Of a stretch of DNA of 39,738 nt, positions 1 through 27,417 are shown piece after piece (position 1 is the first letter of the stretch; every line of letters starts with the position of its first letter). The position numbers and the translations under genes were made by a program. The notes beneath the pieces are model-generated. The model had not been told where the DNA came from. It did not search any database and saw only the letters and a program-made list of their open reading frames with translations. Origin of the DNA: a virus (Duplodnaviria; Heunggongvirae; Uroviricota; Caudoviricetes); IMG/VR virus record IMGVR_UViG_2529293069_000032; one strand, written 5' to 3'.

Positions 1-1002
1 TTACCCTCTATTGTCAAAAGGGTTCAATTCAACAGCAGCCTCTAAATGACCTGGAGCAAAATGCGCATAACGCATAGTCATTTTTATATCGCTATGCCCC
101 AGTATTTTTTGCAACACAAGAATATTTCCACCCCGCATCATAAAATGACTGGCAAACGTGTGACGTAGCACATGAGTTAATTGCCCATCAGGAAGCTCGA
201 TCTTCGCTCTCTTAATTGCAGCGTCAAAAGCCTCATAACATGGTGAAAATAGCGCTCCTCGTTTTTTAGGAAGCATAGCTTGCAATTGAGGTGAAATCGG
301 TACAGTGCGGTTCTTCTTTCCTTTAGTTTTAACAAATGTGATTCGACCGGGCAGTACTTGAGATTGCTTTAATCCTTCTGCTTCACTCCACCGAGCACCA
401 GTCGCAAGCCCAATACGGACAACAACCCCCAAATCTTTATTCCGTGACTCATCACACGCAATCAGAAGGCGTTCAATCTCATCTACATACAGAAACGCCA
501 GTTCCTTTTCTTCCTCACGAAACTTGCGAATACCAGTCAGGGGGTTTTCACCAGACCACTCCCCAAGGCGCTTCAGTTCGGCAAAAACAGCATGTAGATA
601 TGACTGCTCGCGATTAACGGTTGCTTCACTAAGTTTTTTCTTCCCCTTGGGATTCCATTCTCCTGATAGCCTTCTTTCCCGATAAGTAGCAAACATATTT
701 TTGTCAAACTGAGAAGCAAATGGATCTCCCAGCCTGGAACAAATCGCCTCAAGTTTGACTTTGCGCTCTGCACCAGAGGACAAGGTTTTACCGTACATCT
801 CAAACCAACGAGCAATCAACTCAGAAAGACGAGGACCAGAACCATCTTGAAACTCGTCTCCAACTCTACTATTCATTAAACGGCGCTCATAAGAGAGCGC
901 CTCACTTTTTGTCGCAAACTGTTTACGAATGCGTTTTCCCGATGCCCCGTAGGGATAACATTCACAAAGCCATTTACCTGATGGAATCTTACGAACCGAC
1001 AT
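1..1002 (-). CDS. int: Tyrosine site-specific integrase (P2 Int-like)
   Basis: 333 aa ORF; C-terminal catalytic region with HVLRHTFASH ... GHSDIKMTMRYAHF (R-H-R-Y recombinase signature); sits at the prophage left end beside the repressor side, as in P2. Confidence 0.9.
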   Translation of the reverse strand: MSVRKIPSGKWLCECYPYGASGKRIRKQFATKSEALSYERRLMNSRVGDEFQDGSGPRLSELIARWFEMYGKTLSSGAERKVKLEAICSRLGDPFASQFDKNMFATYRERRLSGEWNPKGKKKLSEATVNREQSYLHAVFAELKRLGEWSGENPLTGIRKFREEEKELAFLYVDEIERLLIACDESRNKDLGVVVRIGLATGARWSEAEGLKQSQVLPGRITFVKTKGKKNRTVPISPQLQAMLPKKRGALFSPCYEAFDAAIKRAKIELPDGQLTHVLRHTFASHFMMRGGNILVLQKILGHSDIKMTMRYAHFAPGHLEAAVELNPFDNRG

Positions 1003-2050: not shown

Positions 2051-2455
2051 TCACCTACCCTTAGTTTCGTTATAGTCACGACCAGCGATACGGTTATTAC
2101 CACCAGAAATATTTAACTCACGTCCTGATGGCTGAGTTTCCTTTTCACTGATCGCACCTTTTAAAGCCCCAATCACCGCGTTTTTCACATCTAACGAAGC
2201 TGCTCGAAAGCGAGTAATCAATTCCTGCTCATCATCGTTATAAGTTTCAGGTGAGTGAATTCCCAACACAACATACTGAACATCAAGGCCAAAACGAGAC
2301 AGCGCTGCCAAATACGCAGCATCAGGAAAGCTATCTCCTTTCTCATATCTAAGCTGAGTTAGCTTTTTGACTCCACCAATGTCGCTCATGGCAACTTGAC
2401 TAAGTCCCAATCTTTCCCTTTCCTCACGCAACCGCCGACCAATATCATTTTTCAT
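2051..2455 (-). CDS. HTH (XRE-family) immunity repressor, P2 C functional analogue
   Basis: 134 aa; N-terminal helix-turn-helix (RLREERERLGLSQVAMSDIGGVKKLTQLRYEKG); divergent from the early operon across a 75-bp switch region. Confidence 0.75.
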   Translation of the reverse strand: MKNDIGRRLREERERLGLSQVAMSDIGGVKKLTQLRYEKGDSFPDAAYLAALSRFGLDVQYVVLGIHSPETYNDDEQELITRFRAASLDVKNAVIGALKGAISEKETQPSGRELNISGGNNRIAGRDYNETKGR

Positions 2456-4514: not shown

Positions 4515-4718
4515 ATGGCAATTAAGCATTTTCCCGTCGTTCGCTTTACCTCCAGAGGGCGCGAATACGAGGTCGACGAACGCCTGATTACCACTATCGA
4601 CAAACATCGTTCGGAAAAGGATGCACACCACATCTACCTCACTGACGGCACTTACTTCTGCGCCACCAACGTGGCGCGAGTAAATCTTATCCGACAGGTA
4701 CAGGAGCCACGCAGATGA
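4515..4718 (+). CDS. Hypothetical early protein
   Basis: 67 aa; SD AAAGGGGG upstream; stop overlaps next start. Confidence 0.5.
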   Translation: MAIKHFPVVRFTSRGREYEVDERLITTIDKHRSEKDAHHIYLTDGTYFCATNVARVNLIRQVQEPRR

Positions 4719-4981
4719 CCATTCTGGACTACATCGCTACTCATCCGGGGTGTAGCGGCGGAGAGATCGCCGCAGCACTGAATACCCCAACCACAGCCAT
4801 TAATGCTGAGTTACGCCGACTTTGGCGCGGCGGCTTAGTCATCAGAACAAACCGCAGCACAGGTGGTCGCGCTCGCAAAACAGGAGGCCAGGCTTCTTAC
4901 CACGTAAACCCGATGCCGTTCGGGTGTAGCAATCCACTTACTCACATGTTTAACCAGCTACTGAAGGAAGCCAGAGCATGA
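4715..4981 (+). CDS. Hypothetical early protein (possible winged-helix DNA-binding)
   Basis: 88 aa; translationally coupled (ATGA overlaps) to both neighbours. Confidence 0.5.
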   Translation: MTILDYIATHPGCSGGEIAAALNTPTTAINAELRRLWRGGLVIRTNRSTGGRARKTGGQASYHVNPMPFGCSNPLTHMFNQLLKEARA

Positions 4982-5277
4982 GCACCATCAACCACCAGAA
5001 GCTACGCGAACTGGCATTTGCCCTGCAACGAATGGCAACGCCTCAAAAATTACTGGCATTTCGCGCAATGCTCTCGCCGTCTGCTGTGCTGGCACTGCTG
5101 GATCAGCTGGAGCACGCCAGAACCACGGCTCCTGCCATTCGCCTCACGCTCCATCATGAAATCGCTGATTTCTGCGCAACGCTGGGGGCACCTGGCGAAC
5201 CGGAAACGCCGGAAGCAATGCAGCAAGAGCTGCTGCAACGCATCGATAACGTTTTTGATTTTTTTCTGAACCAGTAA
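4978..5277 (+). CDS. Hypothetical early protein
   Basis: 99 aa; coupled to upstream ORF. Confidence 0.5.
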   Translation: MSTINHQKLRELAFALQRMATPQKLLAFRAMLSPSAVLALLDQLEHARTTAPAIRLTLHHEIADFCATLGAPGEPETPEAMQQELLQRIDNVFDFFLNQ

Positions 5278-5366
5278 GAAACCAGAACATGCACACACAA
5301 AAAAACCGCTTGCCATGCCGCAATCGGTCAGGTTACATTTCCGCTGCACCTCATAAAACGGGTGCC

Positions 5367-5560
5367 GGGATTCTCAACCCGATACAGAGCAAAGCGCATA
5401 ACCGCGCTAGCGGTTTTTTTGTGCGTACTGTATTGCCACGTCTTTTTCGCGTCAGAATTATGGCGGGGCGTACGGGGCCGACTTCGGTCGGGCCGGATTC
5501 TTTGCTCTCCGGTGTTGAGAACCCTGTACGTCTCGCCACCCCGAGATTCTCAACTCTGGA
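5367..5560 (+). ncRNA. Structured non-coding element: long-range stem, UUCG-tetraloop hairpin, internal intrinsic terminator, three ATTCTCAAC copies (candidate attenuator or sRNA)
   Basis: 5367-5394 pairs with 5500-5524 (about 22 bp); hairpin ACCGCGCTAGCGGT+T7 at about 5402-5420; CCGAC-UUCG-GUCGG at about 5477-5495; third motif copy at about 5546-5556. Strand and boundaries uncertain. Confidence 0.3.
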
Positions 5561-5599
5561 TGGTGAGTTATTTCTATCACCGAGCAAAGAGGCCACACC

Positions 5600-5830
5600 A
5601 TGGCAGACCGCAAACAGCACCGCGCTATCGCGGAGCGTCGTCACATCCAGACTGAAATCAACCGCAGACTTTCCCGCGCATCACGCGTCGCGCAAATCAT
5701 GCACATCAATATGCTGCATGAGCGCAGCCACGCACTATCAAACATTTATTCCGCCTCTGTTTTCAGCTATCTGGCGGATGATCTGCACGAGTTTCAACAG
5801 CTCATCCAGCAGCAAAACAAACTCCATTAA
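5600..5830 (+). CDS. Hypothetical protein
   Basis: 76 aa; AAAGAGG SD 7 nt upstream of ATG. Confidence 0.5.
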   Translation: MADRKQHRAIAERRHIQTEINRRLSRASRVAQIMHINMLHERSHALSNIYSASVFSYLADDLHEFQQLIQQQNKLH

Positions 5831-5902
5831 TTCCTGTTCCGGGCCTTTCCTGCACCTTGCGGCGGGAGGCCTTCGCACATCTGTAACAAGAGGATTGCCG
5901 CA

Positions 5903-6268
5903 ATGATTCTCGCCAACGACTTTCTTGAATACCTGCTCAACACAGAACGTGATCTTGCCGCTCGCGTGCGTGATCGTTATGACATGTACCTGAAATCCCT
6001 GCCTGTACCGCAGCTCGCTGACGGAAAGATTGTTATTGATGGTCGCTACATGATTGACAGCCACGAGGGAAATTACAGGCTTTACCGCATTGAAGGTGGC
6101 ACCCCGTCCGTTATTGGCATTTACCAGCGCCCATCCTCTGCAATCGTCGATGAGATTGCCGACAGCATCCGCATCACACATCGCCATGCCGACACAGAAG
6201 ACACCGTGCTGGAAATTCAGCGGCTGGCTACAGCCTGCCGCGACACCCTGAATGGCATGACGAAGTAA
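5903..6268 (+). CDS. Hypothetical protein immediately upstream of gene A
   Basis: 121 aa ORF, high-GC phage-core composition. Confidence 0.55.
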   Translation: MILANDFLEYLLNTERDLAARVRDRYDMYLKSLPVPQLADGKIVIDGRYMIDSHEGNYRLYRIEGGTPSVIGIYQRPSSAIVDEIADSIRITHRHADTEDTVLEIQRLATACRDTLNGMTK

Positions 6269-6274
6269 ATCACT

Positions 6275-9097
6275 ATGACGGCAGAGTACATCAGGGACTG
6301 GCAACAACCGCGCCACGCAGTGGGGCGTGAAGGAACGGGGATCCCCGCTCCTGAATCCGCGCTTTCCTCCTGGCTGGATGCCTACCGGGTAGAGAACGAG
6401 CGCCGCCAGGAAATGGCTGATGCGGCGTTCTCCGCAACGCCGCTGGGCAACCTGATTAATAAAAGCCTGGACGCACAGGAAAAACAGGACAAAACCATCA
6501 CACTGGCAGGAGACGCCAGAAAACAGGCACGCGGTGCGGTGGATGAAGCCATGGCCTCGCTGCGCCTGCTGCCGTCCTATCTGCGCGATCCGCTTATTCG
6601 CCACCTCTCCTTCCTGCGCAAAAAACAGGAAGCCGATCGTCAGAAAGGCAAAAAGAGCTGGCAGGCTGAACGCTACGCGCGCGGAAACCTGCGCAAAATA
6701 TTCGAACGTCTGGAGCGCACCGATCACCGCTGGCTGACACAGGGTTATCGCTCCCTTGCCGGACGCGAACGCCTGGACGATTTGCTTTACCTGCCGCAGC
6801 TCAACAAACACCAGATACAGACGCTGGCCACCATGACGGCGGCGATGTTCAGCAGCACCTTCGAAAAACTCTGCGATGGCTTTGGCGCGACCGATGGCGA
6901 ACTGACCATGGATGTAACGCTGAAGGCGTATCAGATGCTGGCCCGCATGGCGTTACACCTGCACGCCATGCCTCCACATTATGACGCACTGACAACAGAC
7001 AAAGACCGGAGGAACGAACCGGACACGGAGCTGCTGCCGGGCGCAATCCTTCGCCTGACCTGTGCGGAATGGTGGAAACGCAAACTGTGGCTGTTACGTT
7101 GCGAGTGGAGAGAAGAACAACTCCGCGCCGCCTGTCTGGTTTCCAGAAAAACATCGCCCTATCTGAGCCAGGACGCGTTAAGCGAGTTTCGCGCACAGCG
7201 CGAGAAAACACGCGATTTCCTGAAAAGTTTCATGCTGGAAAACGAAGACGGGTTCACGATTGATCTCGAGACAGTGTATTACGCGGGAGTAAGTAACCCG
7301 GTTCACCGTAAGGCAGAAATGATGGCCACCATGAAGGGGCTGGAACTTCTGGCCGAAGCCCGTGGCGACAAAGCGGTGTTTCTGACTGTCACCTGCCCGT
7401 CAAAATACCACGCTACAACAGAGAACGGTCATCCGAATCCCAAATGGAACGGGGCCACCATGCGCGACTCCAGCGATTACCTGGTTAACACGTTTTTTGC
7501 GGCGGTCCGCAAGAAACTGAACCGCGACGGCCTGCGCTGGTATGGCATCCGCACGGTGGAGCCTCACCATGACGGCACCGTGCACTGGCATATGATGGTC
7601 TTTGCTCATCCGGAAGAAATCGACACCATTGTGTCCCACACCCGCGATATTGCCATTCAGGAAGATCGTCACGAGCTGGGCGATGATATTACTCCGCGCT
7701 TTAAGGCGGAGTATGTCGACGGCTCAAAAGGCACGCCAACCAGCTACATCGCCACCTACATCGGAAAAAACCTGGACAGCCGCGCCGTGGATGGCATCGA
7801 CCCGAAAACAGGCAAACCACGCGTTGACCACGAAACCGGAAAATCAATGACCGAGAGCGTGGAACGCGCCATTGGCTGGGCGCGCCTTCACCGGGTCCGC
7901 CAGTTCCAGTTCTTTGGCATCCCCTCCCGTCAGGTGTGGCGTGAACTGCGTCGCCTTGCCAGCCAGATGGCACGCAACCCGGAAGGCCCGCAACGGCTGA
8001 AGGATGACGCAATGGATGCGGTTCTTGCTGCCGCTGATGCCGGATGTTTTGCCACCTACATTGAGAAACAGGGAGGCGTACTTGTTCCACGCAAGGACTA
8101 CCTGATTCGCACCGCCTACGACCTCGCAGATGAGCTGAACGATTACGGCGAACAGAGCGTACAGATTTACGGGATCTGGTCACCACTCATCGGGGAATCC
8201 TCCCGTGTGTGCACGCACCCGGATAACTGGAAGCTGGTAAGACGTAAACCGGGAGTAGAAGACAGCGCCCGCGAAAATGGTTTTGACCTTCAGGGCGGCC
8301 CTGCCGCCCCTTGGACTCGTGGCAATAACTGTCCCCGTGTACAGGAAACGGACAACAACGGGACAGAACAGCCGGAAGAACGGCCAGCACCGTGGCCGCA
8401 GCTTCCTGACGGCGTTGACGTGAACGAATGGATGCGCTCACTGAAACGGCACGAACGCCGGGCGCTGATGCGTTCGCTTCGTGACAAACAGGCAAAAAAC
8501 AGCAGTGATGAAATGCAGAGCTGGACACAGAGCCGCAAACAGCAGCGGCCTTTGCCTGATAACCACGAATTACTCGCTAAAGAATGGCGGGAGTCTGCTG
8601 AATCTCTCGGCCTGCATATCGGTGAACAACAGATGCAGCACCTGTTACGGGGCGGCAGTCTGTACGTTGACGGCAGCATCATTGCACCGCAGGGATTTGA
8701 AATTGTACGCAAACCGGATACCCGCCCGGACAGCCGAATCACGCAGCTCTGGCAGCGCCTGAGCCGTAATCATGGCGTAAGCAGCACGGAGATCCGCCAT
8801 AACCCGGTCGCCAGCTATCTGGCACAGCTGGGGGCATCAGACCCTGAAGCCGCCGCACGCCTGGCATCCACACTTCAGCAGGACCAGAACACCATGAAAA
8901 CACCCGTTACCGTGCTTTCTGACATGCTGCGCGCCATCCGCGACGCAGAGCACGCACAGAGAATCAGTGAAACCACTGAACGCGCCAGCCGCAAAGCAGA
9001 CCTGCTGCGGGGTGGCCTGACCAGTGGAAACAAAAAACAGACAGAAACGGGACTCACAAATCCCGTAAATGAGCAAAAAACGCGCCGCGATATATGA
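6275..9097 (+). CDS. A: Rolling-circle replication initiation endonuclease (P2 gpA family), with long C-terminal extension
   Basis: 940 aa; HUH-type motif TVHWHMMVF and surrounding GPA-family pattern; canonical P2 A is about 760 aa, so about 180 aa of Q/R-rich C-terminal extension. Confidence 0.85.
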   Translation: MTAEYIRDWQQPRHAVGREGTGIPAPESALSSWLDAYRVENERRQEMADAAFSATPLGNLINKSLDAQEKQDKTITLAGDARKQARGAVDEAMASLRLLPSYLRDPLIRHLSFLRKKQEADRQKGKKSWQAERYARGNLRKIFERLERTDHRWLTQGYRSLAGRERLDDLLYLPQLNKHQIQTLATMTAAMFSSTFEKLCDGFGATDGELTMDVTLKAYQMLARMALHLHAMPPHYDALTTDKDRRNEPDTELLPGAILRLTCAEWWKRKLWLLRCEWREEQLRAACLVSRKTSPYLSQDALSEFRAQREKTRDFLKSFMLENEDGFTIDLETVYYAGVSNPVHRKAEMMATMKGLELLAEARGDKAVFLTVTCPSKYHATTENGHPNPKWNGATMRDSSDYLVNTFFAAVRKKLNRDGLRWYGIRTVEPHHDGTVHWHMMVFAHPEEIDTIVSHTRDIAIQEDRHELGDDITPRFKAEYVDGSKGTPTSYIATYIGKNLDSRAVDGIDPKTGKPRVDHETGKSMTESVERAIGWARLHRVRQFQFFGIPSRQVWRELRRLASQMARNPEGPQRLKDDAMDAVLAAADAGCFATYIEKQGGVLVPRKDYLIRTAYDLADELNDYGEQSVQIYGIWSPLIGESSRVCTHPDNWKLVRRKPGVEDSARENGFDLQGGPAAPWTRGNNCPRVQETDNNGTEQPEERPAPWPQLPDGVDVNEWMRSLKRHERRALMRSLRDKQAKNSSDEMQSWTQSRKQQRPLPDNHELLAKEWRESAESLGLHIGEQQMQHLLRGGSLYVDGSIIAPQGFEIVRKPDTRPDSRITQLWQRLSRNHGVSSTEIRHNPVASYLAQLGASDPEAAARLASTLQQDQNTMKTPVTVLSDMLRAIRDAEHAQRISETTERASRKADLLRGGLTSGNKKQTETGLTNPVNEQKTRRDI

Positions 9098-26832: not shown

Positions 26833-27417
26833 GTGAACATGGATTTCAGAATGAGTGAACAACCACGGACCATAAAAATTTATAATCTGCTGGCCGGAAC
26901 TAATGAATTTATTGGTGAAGGTGACGCATACATTCCGCCTCATACAGGTCTGCCAGCAAACAGTACCGATATTGCACCGCCAGATATTCCGGCTGGCTTC
27001 GTGGCTGTTTTCAACAGTAATGAGGCATCGTGGCATCTCGTTGAAGATCATCGGGGTAAAACGGTTTATGACGTGGCTTCCGGCGACGCGTTATTTATTT
27101 CTGAACTCGGTCCGTTACCGGAAAATGTTACCTGGTTGTCGCCGGATGGAGAGTGTCAGAAGTGGAACGGCACATCCTGGGCGAAAGATGCAGAAGCAGA
27201 AAAACTGTTTCGGGTACGGGAGGCAGAAGAAACAAAAAACAGCCTGATGCAGGTAGCCAGTGAGCATATTGCGCCACTTCAGGATGCCGTAGATTTGGAT
27301 ATTGCGACGGAGGAAGAGGCATCGTTACTGGCTGCATGGAAGACATATCGGGTATTGTTGAATCGTGTTGATACAACAGTAGCAGCGGATGTTGAGTGGC
27401 CAGTCGCCCCACAATAA
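26833..27417 (+). CDS. G: Tail fibre assembly chaperone (gpG/Tfa-like)
   Basis: 194 aa; conserved Tfa N-terminus ([37 protein letters not shown]). Confidence 0.8.

Follow-up and report, generated by a model that had tools for sequence, protein, structure and literature searches.

The window analysed here (the whole of IMG/VR record IMGVR_UViG_2529293069_000032, 39,738 nucleotides (nt)) is a complete P88-like prophage of the P2 family (Xuanwuvirus, Peduoviridae) that encodes a protein repressor. Between an early open reading frame (ORF) and the replication genes, it carries two small RNA (sRNA) genes of the IsrK and C4 types, and this region very probably constitutes an RNA-based cassette for secondary immunity or anti-repressor control of the kind found in P1 (immI), P4 (CI) and N15. 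By every sequence feature tested, the locus belongs to the isrK and C4 families, and the module is real and probably functional. It works like P1 immI and P4 immunity, yet is a member of neither operon type. Modules of this kind are already known (P1 immI, P4 CI/seqA, Gifsy-1 IsrK), and only the context is apparently undescribed, namely an epsilon-type gene and P2-type replication genes located behind C4 in P2-family phages. A previous model-generated reading of the letters alone (the sequence-only reading) had proposed a transcription attenuator or riboregulator, or a phage sRNA. An RNA regulator, an sRNA locus, an internal terminator and mutually exclusive pairings were indeed recovered, but they are distributed over two known RNA genes rather than forming a single attenuator.

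The entire window was scanned with Rfam at curated thresholds, which returned three matches (isrK, C4 and IS009). A permissive rescan of positions 5200-5950 on both strands yielded nothing besides isrK and C4. The C4 gene comprises the following elements.

5456-5543, plus strand: C4/CI-type antisense RNA (Rfam RF01695, 78.5 bits against a cut-off of 45, E 6.9e-14)
5461-5477 with 5522-5538, plus strand: closing stem of C4, 17 bp
5478-5491, plus strand: CCGAC-UUCG-GUCGG hairpin
5492-5513, plus strand: hairpin 3 of C4, with box b' CTTTGCTCT (5500-5508) in and beside its loop
5514-5521, plus strand: box a' GTTGAGAA, single-stranded
5536-5540, plus strand: CCACC at the 3' side of C4, kept in all homologues aligned

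The match covers positions 1-87 of the 87-position model, and the mature RNA is predicted to extend from about 5461 to 5541, with the processing sites transferred from P1 and P4. Its minimum free energy (MFE) fold (-47.6 kcal/mol, z = -4.9) is the family structure and was equalled by none of 200 shuffled sequences. When the fold was imposed on nine homologues, 98% of the cells were paired and 13 of the 28 pairs showed compensatory changes on both sides; none of 500 shuffles matched this covariation, and slid partners gave only 36-47% pairing. In addition to the score above the gathering threshold, the locus shows the closing stem around two hairpins, targets of a' and b' downstream and the a1 and b1 boxes upstream that characterise the family. 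By analogy, the closing stem and the 3' CCACC appear to mimic the acceptor end of a tRNA, which would be a sequence signature of excision. The tetraloop hairpin that the sequence-only reading had pointed out lies within this RNA. As a separate observation, a stretch located after the second a box (5561-5567, GGATGGTGAG) is similar in sequence to the 5' strand of the closing stem and can therefore pair with the 3' strand of C4 (compare 5531-5539); equivalents are found in mEp460, P4 and P1, and the pairing may represent an alternative structure in the unprocessed precursor.

The second RNA gene is located upstream of C4, separated from it by a spacer of 35 nt.

5346-5420, plus strand: IsrK/seqA-type leader sRNA (Rfam RF01394, 63 bits against a cut-off of 50, E 2.5e-11)
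5346-5365, plus strand: IsrK hairpin 1
5366-5381, plus strand: IsrK hairpin 2, with box a1 TTCTCAAC (5371-5378) in its loop
5386-5394, plus strand: box b1 AGAGCAAAG, single-stranded
5400-5415, plus strand: intrinsic terminator stem-loop AACCGCGCTAGCGGTT, with a T7 (U7) tract at 5414-5420, detected by a terminator scan

Here the match extends over positions 1-77 of 77, and the MFE fold (z = -2.7) was equalled by one of 200 shuffles. Across ten homologues, 91% of the cells were paired and 7 of 17 pairs were compensatory, a covariation score reached by none of 500 shuffles. Membership in the isrK family is thus indicated by the gathering score and by two 5' hairpins followed by a Rho-independent terminator, all with covariation. 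The terminator followed by seven T residues had already been noticed in the sequence-only reading, and the folding, covariation and Rfam analyses that it had suggested came out in favour of structured RNA for both genes, with folds better than those of shuffled sequences, compensatory changes in homologues and matches above the curated cut-offs.

IsrK and C4 are linked to each other and to the downstream gene by two sets of short complementary boxes. The sequence-only reading had described a long-range stem of about 22 bp in this place. The complementarity exists, but it does not form a single stem: positions 5368-5378 (GGATTCTCAAC) are complementary to 5514-5524 (GTTGAGAACCC) at 10 of 11 positions and positions 5386-5394 (AGAGCAAAG) to 5500-5508 (CTTTGCTCT) at 9 of 9, and the two boxes are set apart by seven unpaired nt on one side and five on the other. 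A further copy of each box is found downstream of C4.

5546/5547-5554, plus strand: box a2, (A)TTCTCAAC, complementary to a' at 5514-5521
5582-5590, plus strand: box b2 GAGCAAAGA, complementary to b' (5499-5508) and overlapping the Shine-Dalgarno sequence AGAGG (5588-5592) of the ATG at 5600

Box a2 corresponds to the third motif copy that had been thought able to pair with the 3' arm, and is now seen to be one of two downstream target boxes. It matches the position of the annotated a2 site of P1, and b2 matches that of P1 b2, for which the record states 'repression of icd ant translation'. The location of b2 over the Shine-Dalgarno sequence, the sigma-70-like promoter at 5310-5339 described below and the division into two separate RNA genes go beyond what the sequence-only reading had reported.

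To follow the boxes through related elements, a covariance model was built from nine C4 sequences and used to search loci collected by a C4 DNA pattern scan of viral contigs, together with contigs encoding more distant epsilon-like proteins; a contig scan with a single epsilon-like protein as query had given three close relatives only. The resulting sample comprised 76 unique loci from phages and prophages with 55 distinct a'/b' combinations. A box was counted as matched when an exact complement of at least 7 nt was present at the expected place in the flanks of its own locus (for a2, within 20 nt downstream of C4), and the flanks of loci with other boxes served as a control.

a1: own locus 93%, mismatched 3.5%
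b1: own locus 64%, mismatched 3.5%
a2: own locus 91%, mismatched 1.4%
b2: own locus 84%, mismatched 2.3%

In the loci read, b2 ends in the GAGG-type Shine-Dalgarno sequence of the first downstream ORF. The same behaviour is visible at close range when the window is compared with P88: the scaffold is about 92% identical, all four boxes are swapped and the partners are matched in both. The a1/a'/a2 set reads TTCTCAAC/GTTGAGAA in the window and TTTCCAC/GTGGAAA in P88, and the b1/b'/b2 set AGAGCAAAG/CTTTGCTCT in the window and CAACTACAG/CTGTAGTTG in P88. The predicted energies of the box-region duplexes formed by C4 of the window are -32.6 and -33.2 kcal/mol with its own targets, compared with -19.4 and -18.6 kcal/mol with the P88 targets. 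Judged from the sequences, this pattern is one of RNA-RNA recognition with diversifying specificity. The boxes would then set the immunity specificity, and the prophage in the window and P88 would carry different ones.

Several loci of the sample showed individual arrangements. In one (L039), the a1 box no longer matches its own a'. Five loci contain two C4 genes on the same strand (L036, 4675-4762 and 5334-5421; L037, 3663-3750 and 4319-4406; L119, 7841-7928 and 8494-8581; L139, 3857-3944 and 4686-4773; L078, 7247-7334 and 9877-9963). Four of the pairs are spaced by about 650-830 nt and that of L078 by about 2.6 kb. In L036, L037 and L078, the three loci covered by the comparison, the two C4 copies carry different a'/b' boxes.

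The cassette appears to have a promoter of its own.

5310-5339, plus strand: sigma-70-like promoter-like site from a consensus scan (-35 TTGCCA at 5310-5315, 18-nt spacer, -10 TACATT at 5334-5339)

The predicted start lies at about 5346, and the site ends 7 nt ahead of the IsrK start. A hexamer pair occupies the equivalent position before the IsrK 5' end in P88, mEp460, ST64B, N15, Stx phages, GER2, P4 and P1, and in the P1 record this position is the annotated promoter P1c4/P51b. The site at 5310-5339 presumably acts as the promoter of the RNA module. A second promoter-like site (TTGCCA-17-AATTAT, 5433-5461) was weighed as a possible promoter of C4 but discounted, since its -10 element is the conserved 5' edge of C4, so that a start there would truncate the closing stem. 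No LexA box (CTGT-N8-ACAG) was found by eye near either promoter-like site.

Box b2 covers the ribosome-binding site of a short gene.

5600-5830, plus strand: ORF of 76 amino acids (aa), homologue of the P4 epsilon 'derepression' protein (Pfam PF25738, 31.9 bits against a cut-off of 27)

Residues 12-67 align to positions 16-71 of the 95-position profile, on which P4 epsilon itself scores 170 bits, and BLASTP to P4 epsilon gave 32% identity over 50 aa (pairwise E 6e-9). The distance from the end of C4 to the ATG is 56 nt in the window and identical in seven further epsilon-like loci, one of them from another P2-like lineage, whose gene A product has 837 aa. All epsilon-like loci examined, P88-type loci included, have a C4 gene immediately upstream of the epsilon-like gene. 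No solved structure related to the epsilon-like protein was found, and Pfam and PHROG searches of the ORF at 5600, orf121 and gene A revealed no Ant, Bro or KilAC domain. Based on its homology and position, the 5600-5830 product is a candidate anti-repressor and a candidate for the first gene gated by the module. Among the 17 P88-type loci aligned, at least three allelic forms of the epsilon-like gene can be told apart, with sharp differences in the central part. They recombine freely with the types of both boxes, a and b.

The same combination of elements is known from several temperate phages and satellites. The isrK and C4 models match in the same order in P88, mEp460, ST64B, N15, two Stx2 phages, GER2 and P4. 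IsrK and C4 are structural homologues of P4 seqA and CI, and P1, P7, N15 and some lambdoid prophages as well as phage-inducible chromosomal islands (PICIs) use similar systems (PMC3632133, PMC10111431). In P4, whose left operon consists of the PLE promoter, seqA, CI RNA, seqC, kil/eta, epsilon and alpha, the isrK model scores 60.8 bits on seqA and the C4 model 74.9 bits on CI, both of which are experimentally defined. P4 resembles the window in having, in the same order, a promoter (in the window a promoter-like site), a leader with a1 and b1, an antisense RNA and a2/b2 boxes over the ribosome-binding site, and also in the epsilon-family gene and replication gene that follow downstream in the same operon and in a long frame over the RNA genes. 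In contrast to P4, the epsilon-like gene of the window follows C4 directly, without an in-frame nested Kil/Eta ORF, the leader-to-C4 spacer measures 35 rather than 107 nt, and the replication gene encodes a P2-type gene A nickase instead of the alpha primase(-helicase). Moreover, the window is a full P2-family phage of helper type with a protein repressor, whereas P4 is a satellite that uses RNA as its main immunity.

The P1 record lists P51b, a1, b1, c4, a2, b2 and icd in an order and with a spacing almost as in the window, with a2 about 4 nt and b2 33-39 nt past C4 in both. The C4 model matches the annotated c4 gene, and the P1 leader, with an isrK score of 35 bits, falls short of the cut-off of that family and is assigned by Rfam to the clan member c4-a1b1 (RF03163). 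In the immI region of P1 and P7, b2 represses translation of a first small ORF, on which expression of the next gene depends, as stated in the P1 record, and c4 of P1 provides a second layer of immunity beside a protein repressor, as is probable for the window. Unlike P1 and P7 (c4, icd, ant1/ant2), the window carries an epsilon-like gene in place of icd and ant, and its box sequences differ. N15 has isrK and C4 matches upstream of gp32, gp31 and gp30 (Bro-N), an arrangement like that of the window, with which it shares the a' box GTTGAGAA. Its b boxes differ, and its downstream genes are Ash-like and Bro-type, unlike those of the window. In the anti-immunity locus of N15, a processed small RNA controls an anti-repressor.

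A further counterpart is found in the Salmonella prophage Gifsy-1. The Gifsy-1 isrK gene has its own promoter and a leaky terminator, and the anti-repressor AnrP is encoded downstream; cis pairing between the central portion of IsrK and downstream RNA gives a translationally inactive 'structure A', as proven by compensatory mutations, and short IsrK acting in trans switches the message on, leading to prophage induction (PMC4825925). In this locus (isrK, orf45/STnc1160, anrP), an ATG in the C4 homologue starts the same frame as in the window, and the authors regard the C4 region chiefly as coding sequence, with orf45 linked to the Rha/Ant-like AnrP. In Gifsy-1 the output is the antiterminator AntQ, belonging to a lambdoid phage, and in the window it would be an epsilon-like protein and P2-type replication genes.

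Transferred to the window, these precedents suggest the following sequence of events. The cassette promoter would be active in the lysogen, and most transcripts would stop at 5420 to give a short IsrK RNA, as indicated by the homologues. Processing of the transcripts that read through, carried out by RNase P in P1 and P4, would yield a stable C4 of about 78 nt. C4 would then pair with a2 and b2 and block translation of the epsilon-like ORF, and the untranslated message would be terminated, so that the anti-repressor, and probably also orf121 and gene A insofar as they depend on that transcript, would remain silent, in line with the annotation of the P1 record and with the account of P4 in PMC10111431. 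The a1 and b1 boxes in IsrK would compete for the same C4 segments, with pairing in cis producing an inactive long-range structure. Short IsrK supplied in trans might titrate C4, or open the message and turn expression on as in Gifsy-1. In P4, contact between seqA and CI promotes early termination (PMC10111431).

Several points weigh against this interpretation or its details. The mechanistic steps rest on homology throughout, and the role of the upstream copy differs among the homologues themselves, being a termination target in P4 and a trans-activator in Gifsy-1. In the MFE fold of the read-through RNA, a' and b' pair in cis with a2 and b2 and not with a1 and b1. When full C4 was cofolded with its targets as two strands, the net gain in energy was close to nil, because loop-loop contacts are not modelled, which leaves the duplex energies of the box regions as the only informative values. 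The repressor encoded at 2051-2455 is not of the P2 C type that P4 epsilon binds. Finally, transcripts of the early operon can arrive at gene A only by crossing the IsrK terminator, for which this scheme offers no mechanism.

The last point directs attention to a reading frame that spans the cassette.

5289-5906, plus strand: open frame of 205 codons, listed tentatively, in the frame of a conserved ATG within C4 (5460)

This frame crosses IsrK, C4, a2/b2 and, in another frame, the epsilon-like gene, and it stops in an ATGA at the start of orf121. It is the only long open frame in P88-, Rha- and P4-type loci and corresponds to the eta/kil frame of P4 and the orf45 frame of Gifsy-1. It is open in 12 of 13 P88-type loci, closed in L010 and extended in L063; among 5000 shuffles, 13 lacked a stop in it. 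The frame matches Pfam Phage_ASH at 18.6 bits, short of the cut-off of 26, and would encode a product rich in Arg and Ser. A coding role of the frame is a weak hypothesis. Eta translation from upstream transcripts is said to counteract RNA-mediated termination in P4 (PMC10111431), and by analogy ribosomes arriving from the early operon could likewise counter termination in the window. It is conceivable, albeit unlikely, that the IsrK-C4 cassette of P88-like P2-family phages goes beyond a mere copy of P1/P4 immunity and serves as an early-operon gate that separates two classes of transcripts. Transcripts from the cassette promoter would be untranslated and held off by C4. Early-operon transcripts would pass the terminator of IsrK and the target sites of C4 with the help of ribosomes on the 5289-5906 frame, which would act as an Eta-like bypass, with the ATGA at orf121 coupling early transcription to the replication genes. 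As a corollary, the occurrence in helper-type phages of a P4-epsilon homologue controlled in the CI manner would suggest that the helper-derepression module of P4 originated in the P2 family or was exchanged between the two, and cross-talk of RNAs and anti-repressors would be possible between co-resident P2-like prophages and P4-like satellites.

A further element may bear on these transcripts. The left edge of the cassette, upstream of the promoter, carries a conserved CACAAAAAAACCGCTTGC (A7-CCGC, 5299-5309) that is complementary to the 3' half of the terminator and its U tract, as part of a 21-nt inverted repeat (5293-5313 and 5406-5426, 90% complementary). The A7-CCGC element is kept in 17 P88-type loci with four different upstream genes, and the IsrK terminator is invariant among P88-type loci. 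The element could affect termination on early-operon transcripts.

Competition of the A7-CCGC element with terminator formation on such transcripts would also suit a purely cis-acting transcription attenuator, in which alternative pairings set the state of the terminator at 5400-5420 and no stable trans-acting RNA is made. The terminator and the mutually exclusive pairings exist, and the homologue in Gifsy-1 does use two cis structures, A and B (PMC4825925). We nevertheless consider this explanation very unlikely, since the pairing boxes sit outside the terminator stem, C4 folds autonomously (z = -4.9) into the scaffold of RNAs that are excised and act in trans in P1 and P4, and the position of b2 over the ribosome-binding site points to translational control.

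The chances are slimmer still that the conservation stems from an Ash/Eta-type protein gene in the 5289-5906 frame and not from RNA genes. The open state of all 205 codons here and in P88-, Rha- and P4-type loci, the identity with the eta/kil frame of P4, the weak Phage_ASH match and the ATG in the Gifsy-1 C4 homologue, which starts the translated 'orf45' (PMC4825925), speak for this view. It is opposed by the low Pfam score and the Arg/Ser-rich product, by the broken frame in L010 and the extended one in L063, by the overlap with the Pfam-supported epsilon-like ORF in another frame and, in particular, by substitutions that retain the base pairing and the complementarity of the boxes, a pattern for which coding constraint gives no account. 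RNA function and translation across the module need not exclude each other, as P4 has both (PMC10111431). The idea that ATTCTCAAC and GAGCAAAG are repeated as iterons or operators, DNA sites for a protein such as a replication initiator or repressor, raised in the sequence-only reading and favoured by three copies each of two motifs within 230 bp just upstream of replication genes, has virtually no probability left and was rejected because the repeats are mutually complementary, with one inverted copy per set that always lies in an unpaired segment of the conserved C4 fold, differ freely between phages yet change together as RNA-RNA partners over 55 combinations, and recur in the same layout in P1, N15, lambdoid phages and P4, whose replication proteins are unrelated.

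The RNA-based immunity cassette is embedded in the following gene context.

1-1002, minus strand: integrase
2051-2455, minus strand: candidate helix-turn-helix (HTH) repressor, with weak HTH matches only
from 2531, plus strand: early operon
stop at 5277, plus strand: Ead/Ea22-like early ORF; the RNA cassette lies between this stop and the ATG at 5600
upstream of the ORF at 5600, plus strand: RNA cassette (promoter, IsrK, C4, boxes)
5903-6268, plus strand: orf121, no Pfam match
6275-9097, plus strand: gene A, 940-aa P2-type replication endonuclease (Pfam Phage_GPA, 438 bits; PHROG 'nicking at origin of replication')
after gene A: parM

The order epsilon-like gene, orf121, gene A is kept in P88 and other relatives. 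Both orf121 and gene A are likely subject to polarity from the module and would in this way come under the control of C4. The proposal of the sequence-only reading that the region controls replication genes therefore holds in that the module lies upstream of them, but the gene directly gated would be the epsilon-like ORF, with the replication genes affected through polarity only. In the related phage 520873 (L009, 4259-5011, compared with window 4715-6268), a MarR-like gene directly joins the orf121 homologue; a C4 match is absent, and the whole IsrK-C4-epsilon cassette is missing. The cassette thus behaves as a module of about 0.55 kb, located at roughly 5296-5830. The integrase and repressor region is common to the window and phage 520873, whereas P88, which has the cassette, carries a P2 C type repressor and a different Cox. 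These combinations indicate that the immunity region and the RNA cassette assort independently.

The RNA region of the window is 100% identical to that of a prophage located beside yecA in E. coli O157:H7 strains, and related copies of the module were found in 1178 of 5426 complete E. coli genomes, O157:H7 among them. Rfam-based surveys already list C4 and isrK in an O157:H7 genome (PMC5331693). In one RefSeq O157:H7 region, an RNA feature is absent at the module, and a 'derepression protein' alone is listed under the top matches. The P88 record (L001, NC_026014) shows a minus-strand 'hypothetical protein', SF19_gp13 (5033-5221), over isrK (5028-5102) and C4 (5138-5225), which is probably a spurious coding sequence. 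Literature searches on P88/Xuanwuvirus and on epsilon-type derepression proteins in P2-like phages returned nothing on an RNA module in that group. The practical value of the findings lies mainly in annotation, and the current understanding of the family is unchanged by them. The module points to a second level of lysogeny control, based on RNA, in a common P2-like prophage of O157:H7. Its box sequences would predict which related prophages are immune to one another, and the epsilon-like gene may encode an anti-repressor that acts in induction or in cross-talk between prophages. The third Rfam match in the window, a full-length IS009 hit on the plus strand at 27182-27380 (RF02111, 191 bits against a cut-off of 117), is unrelated to the module.

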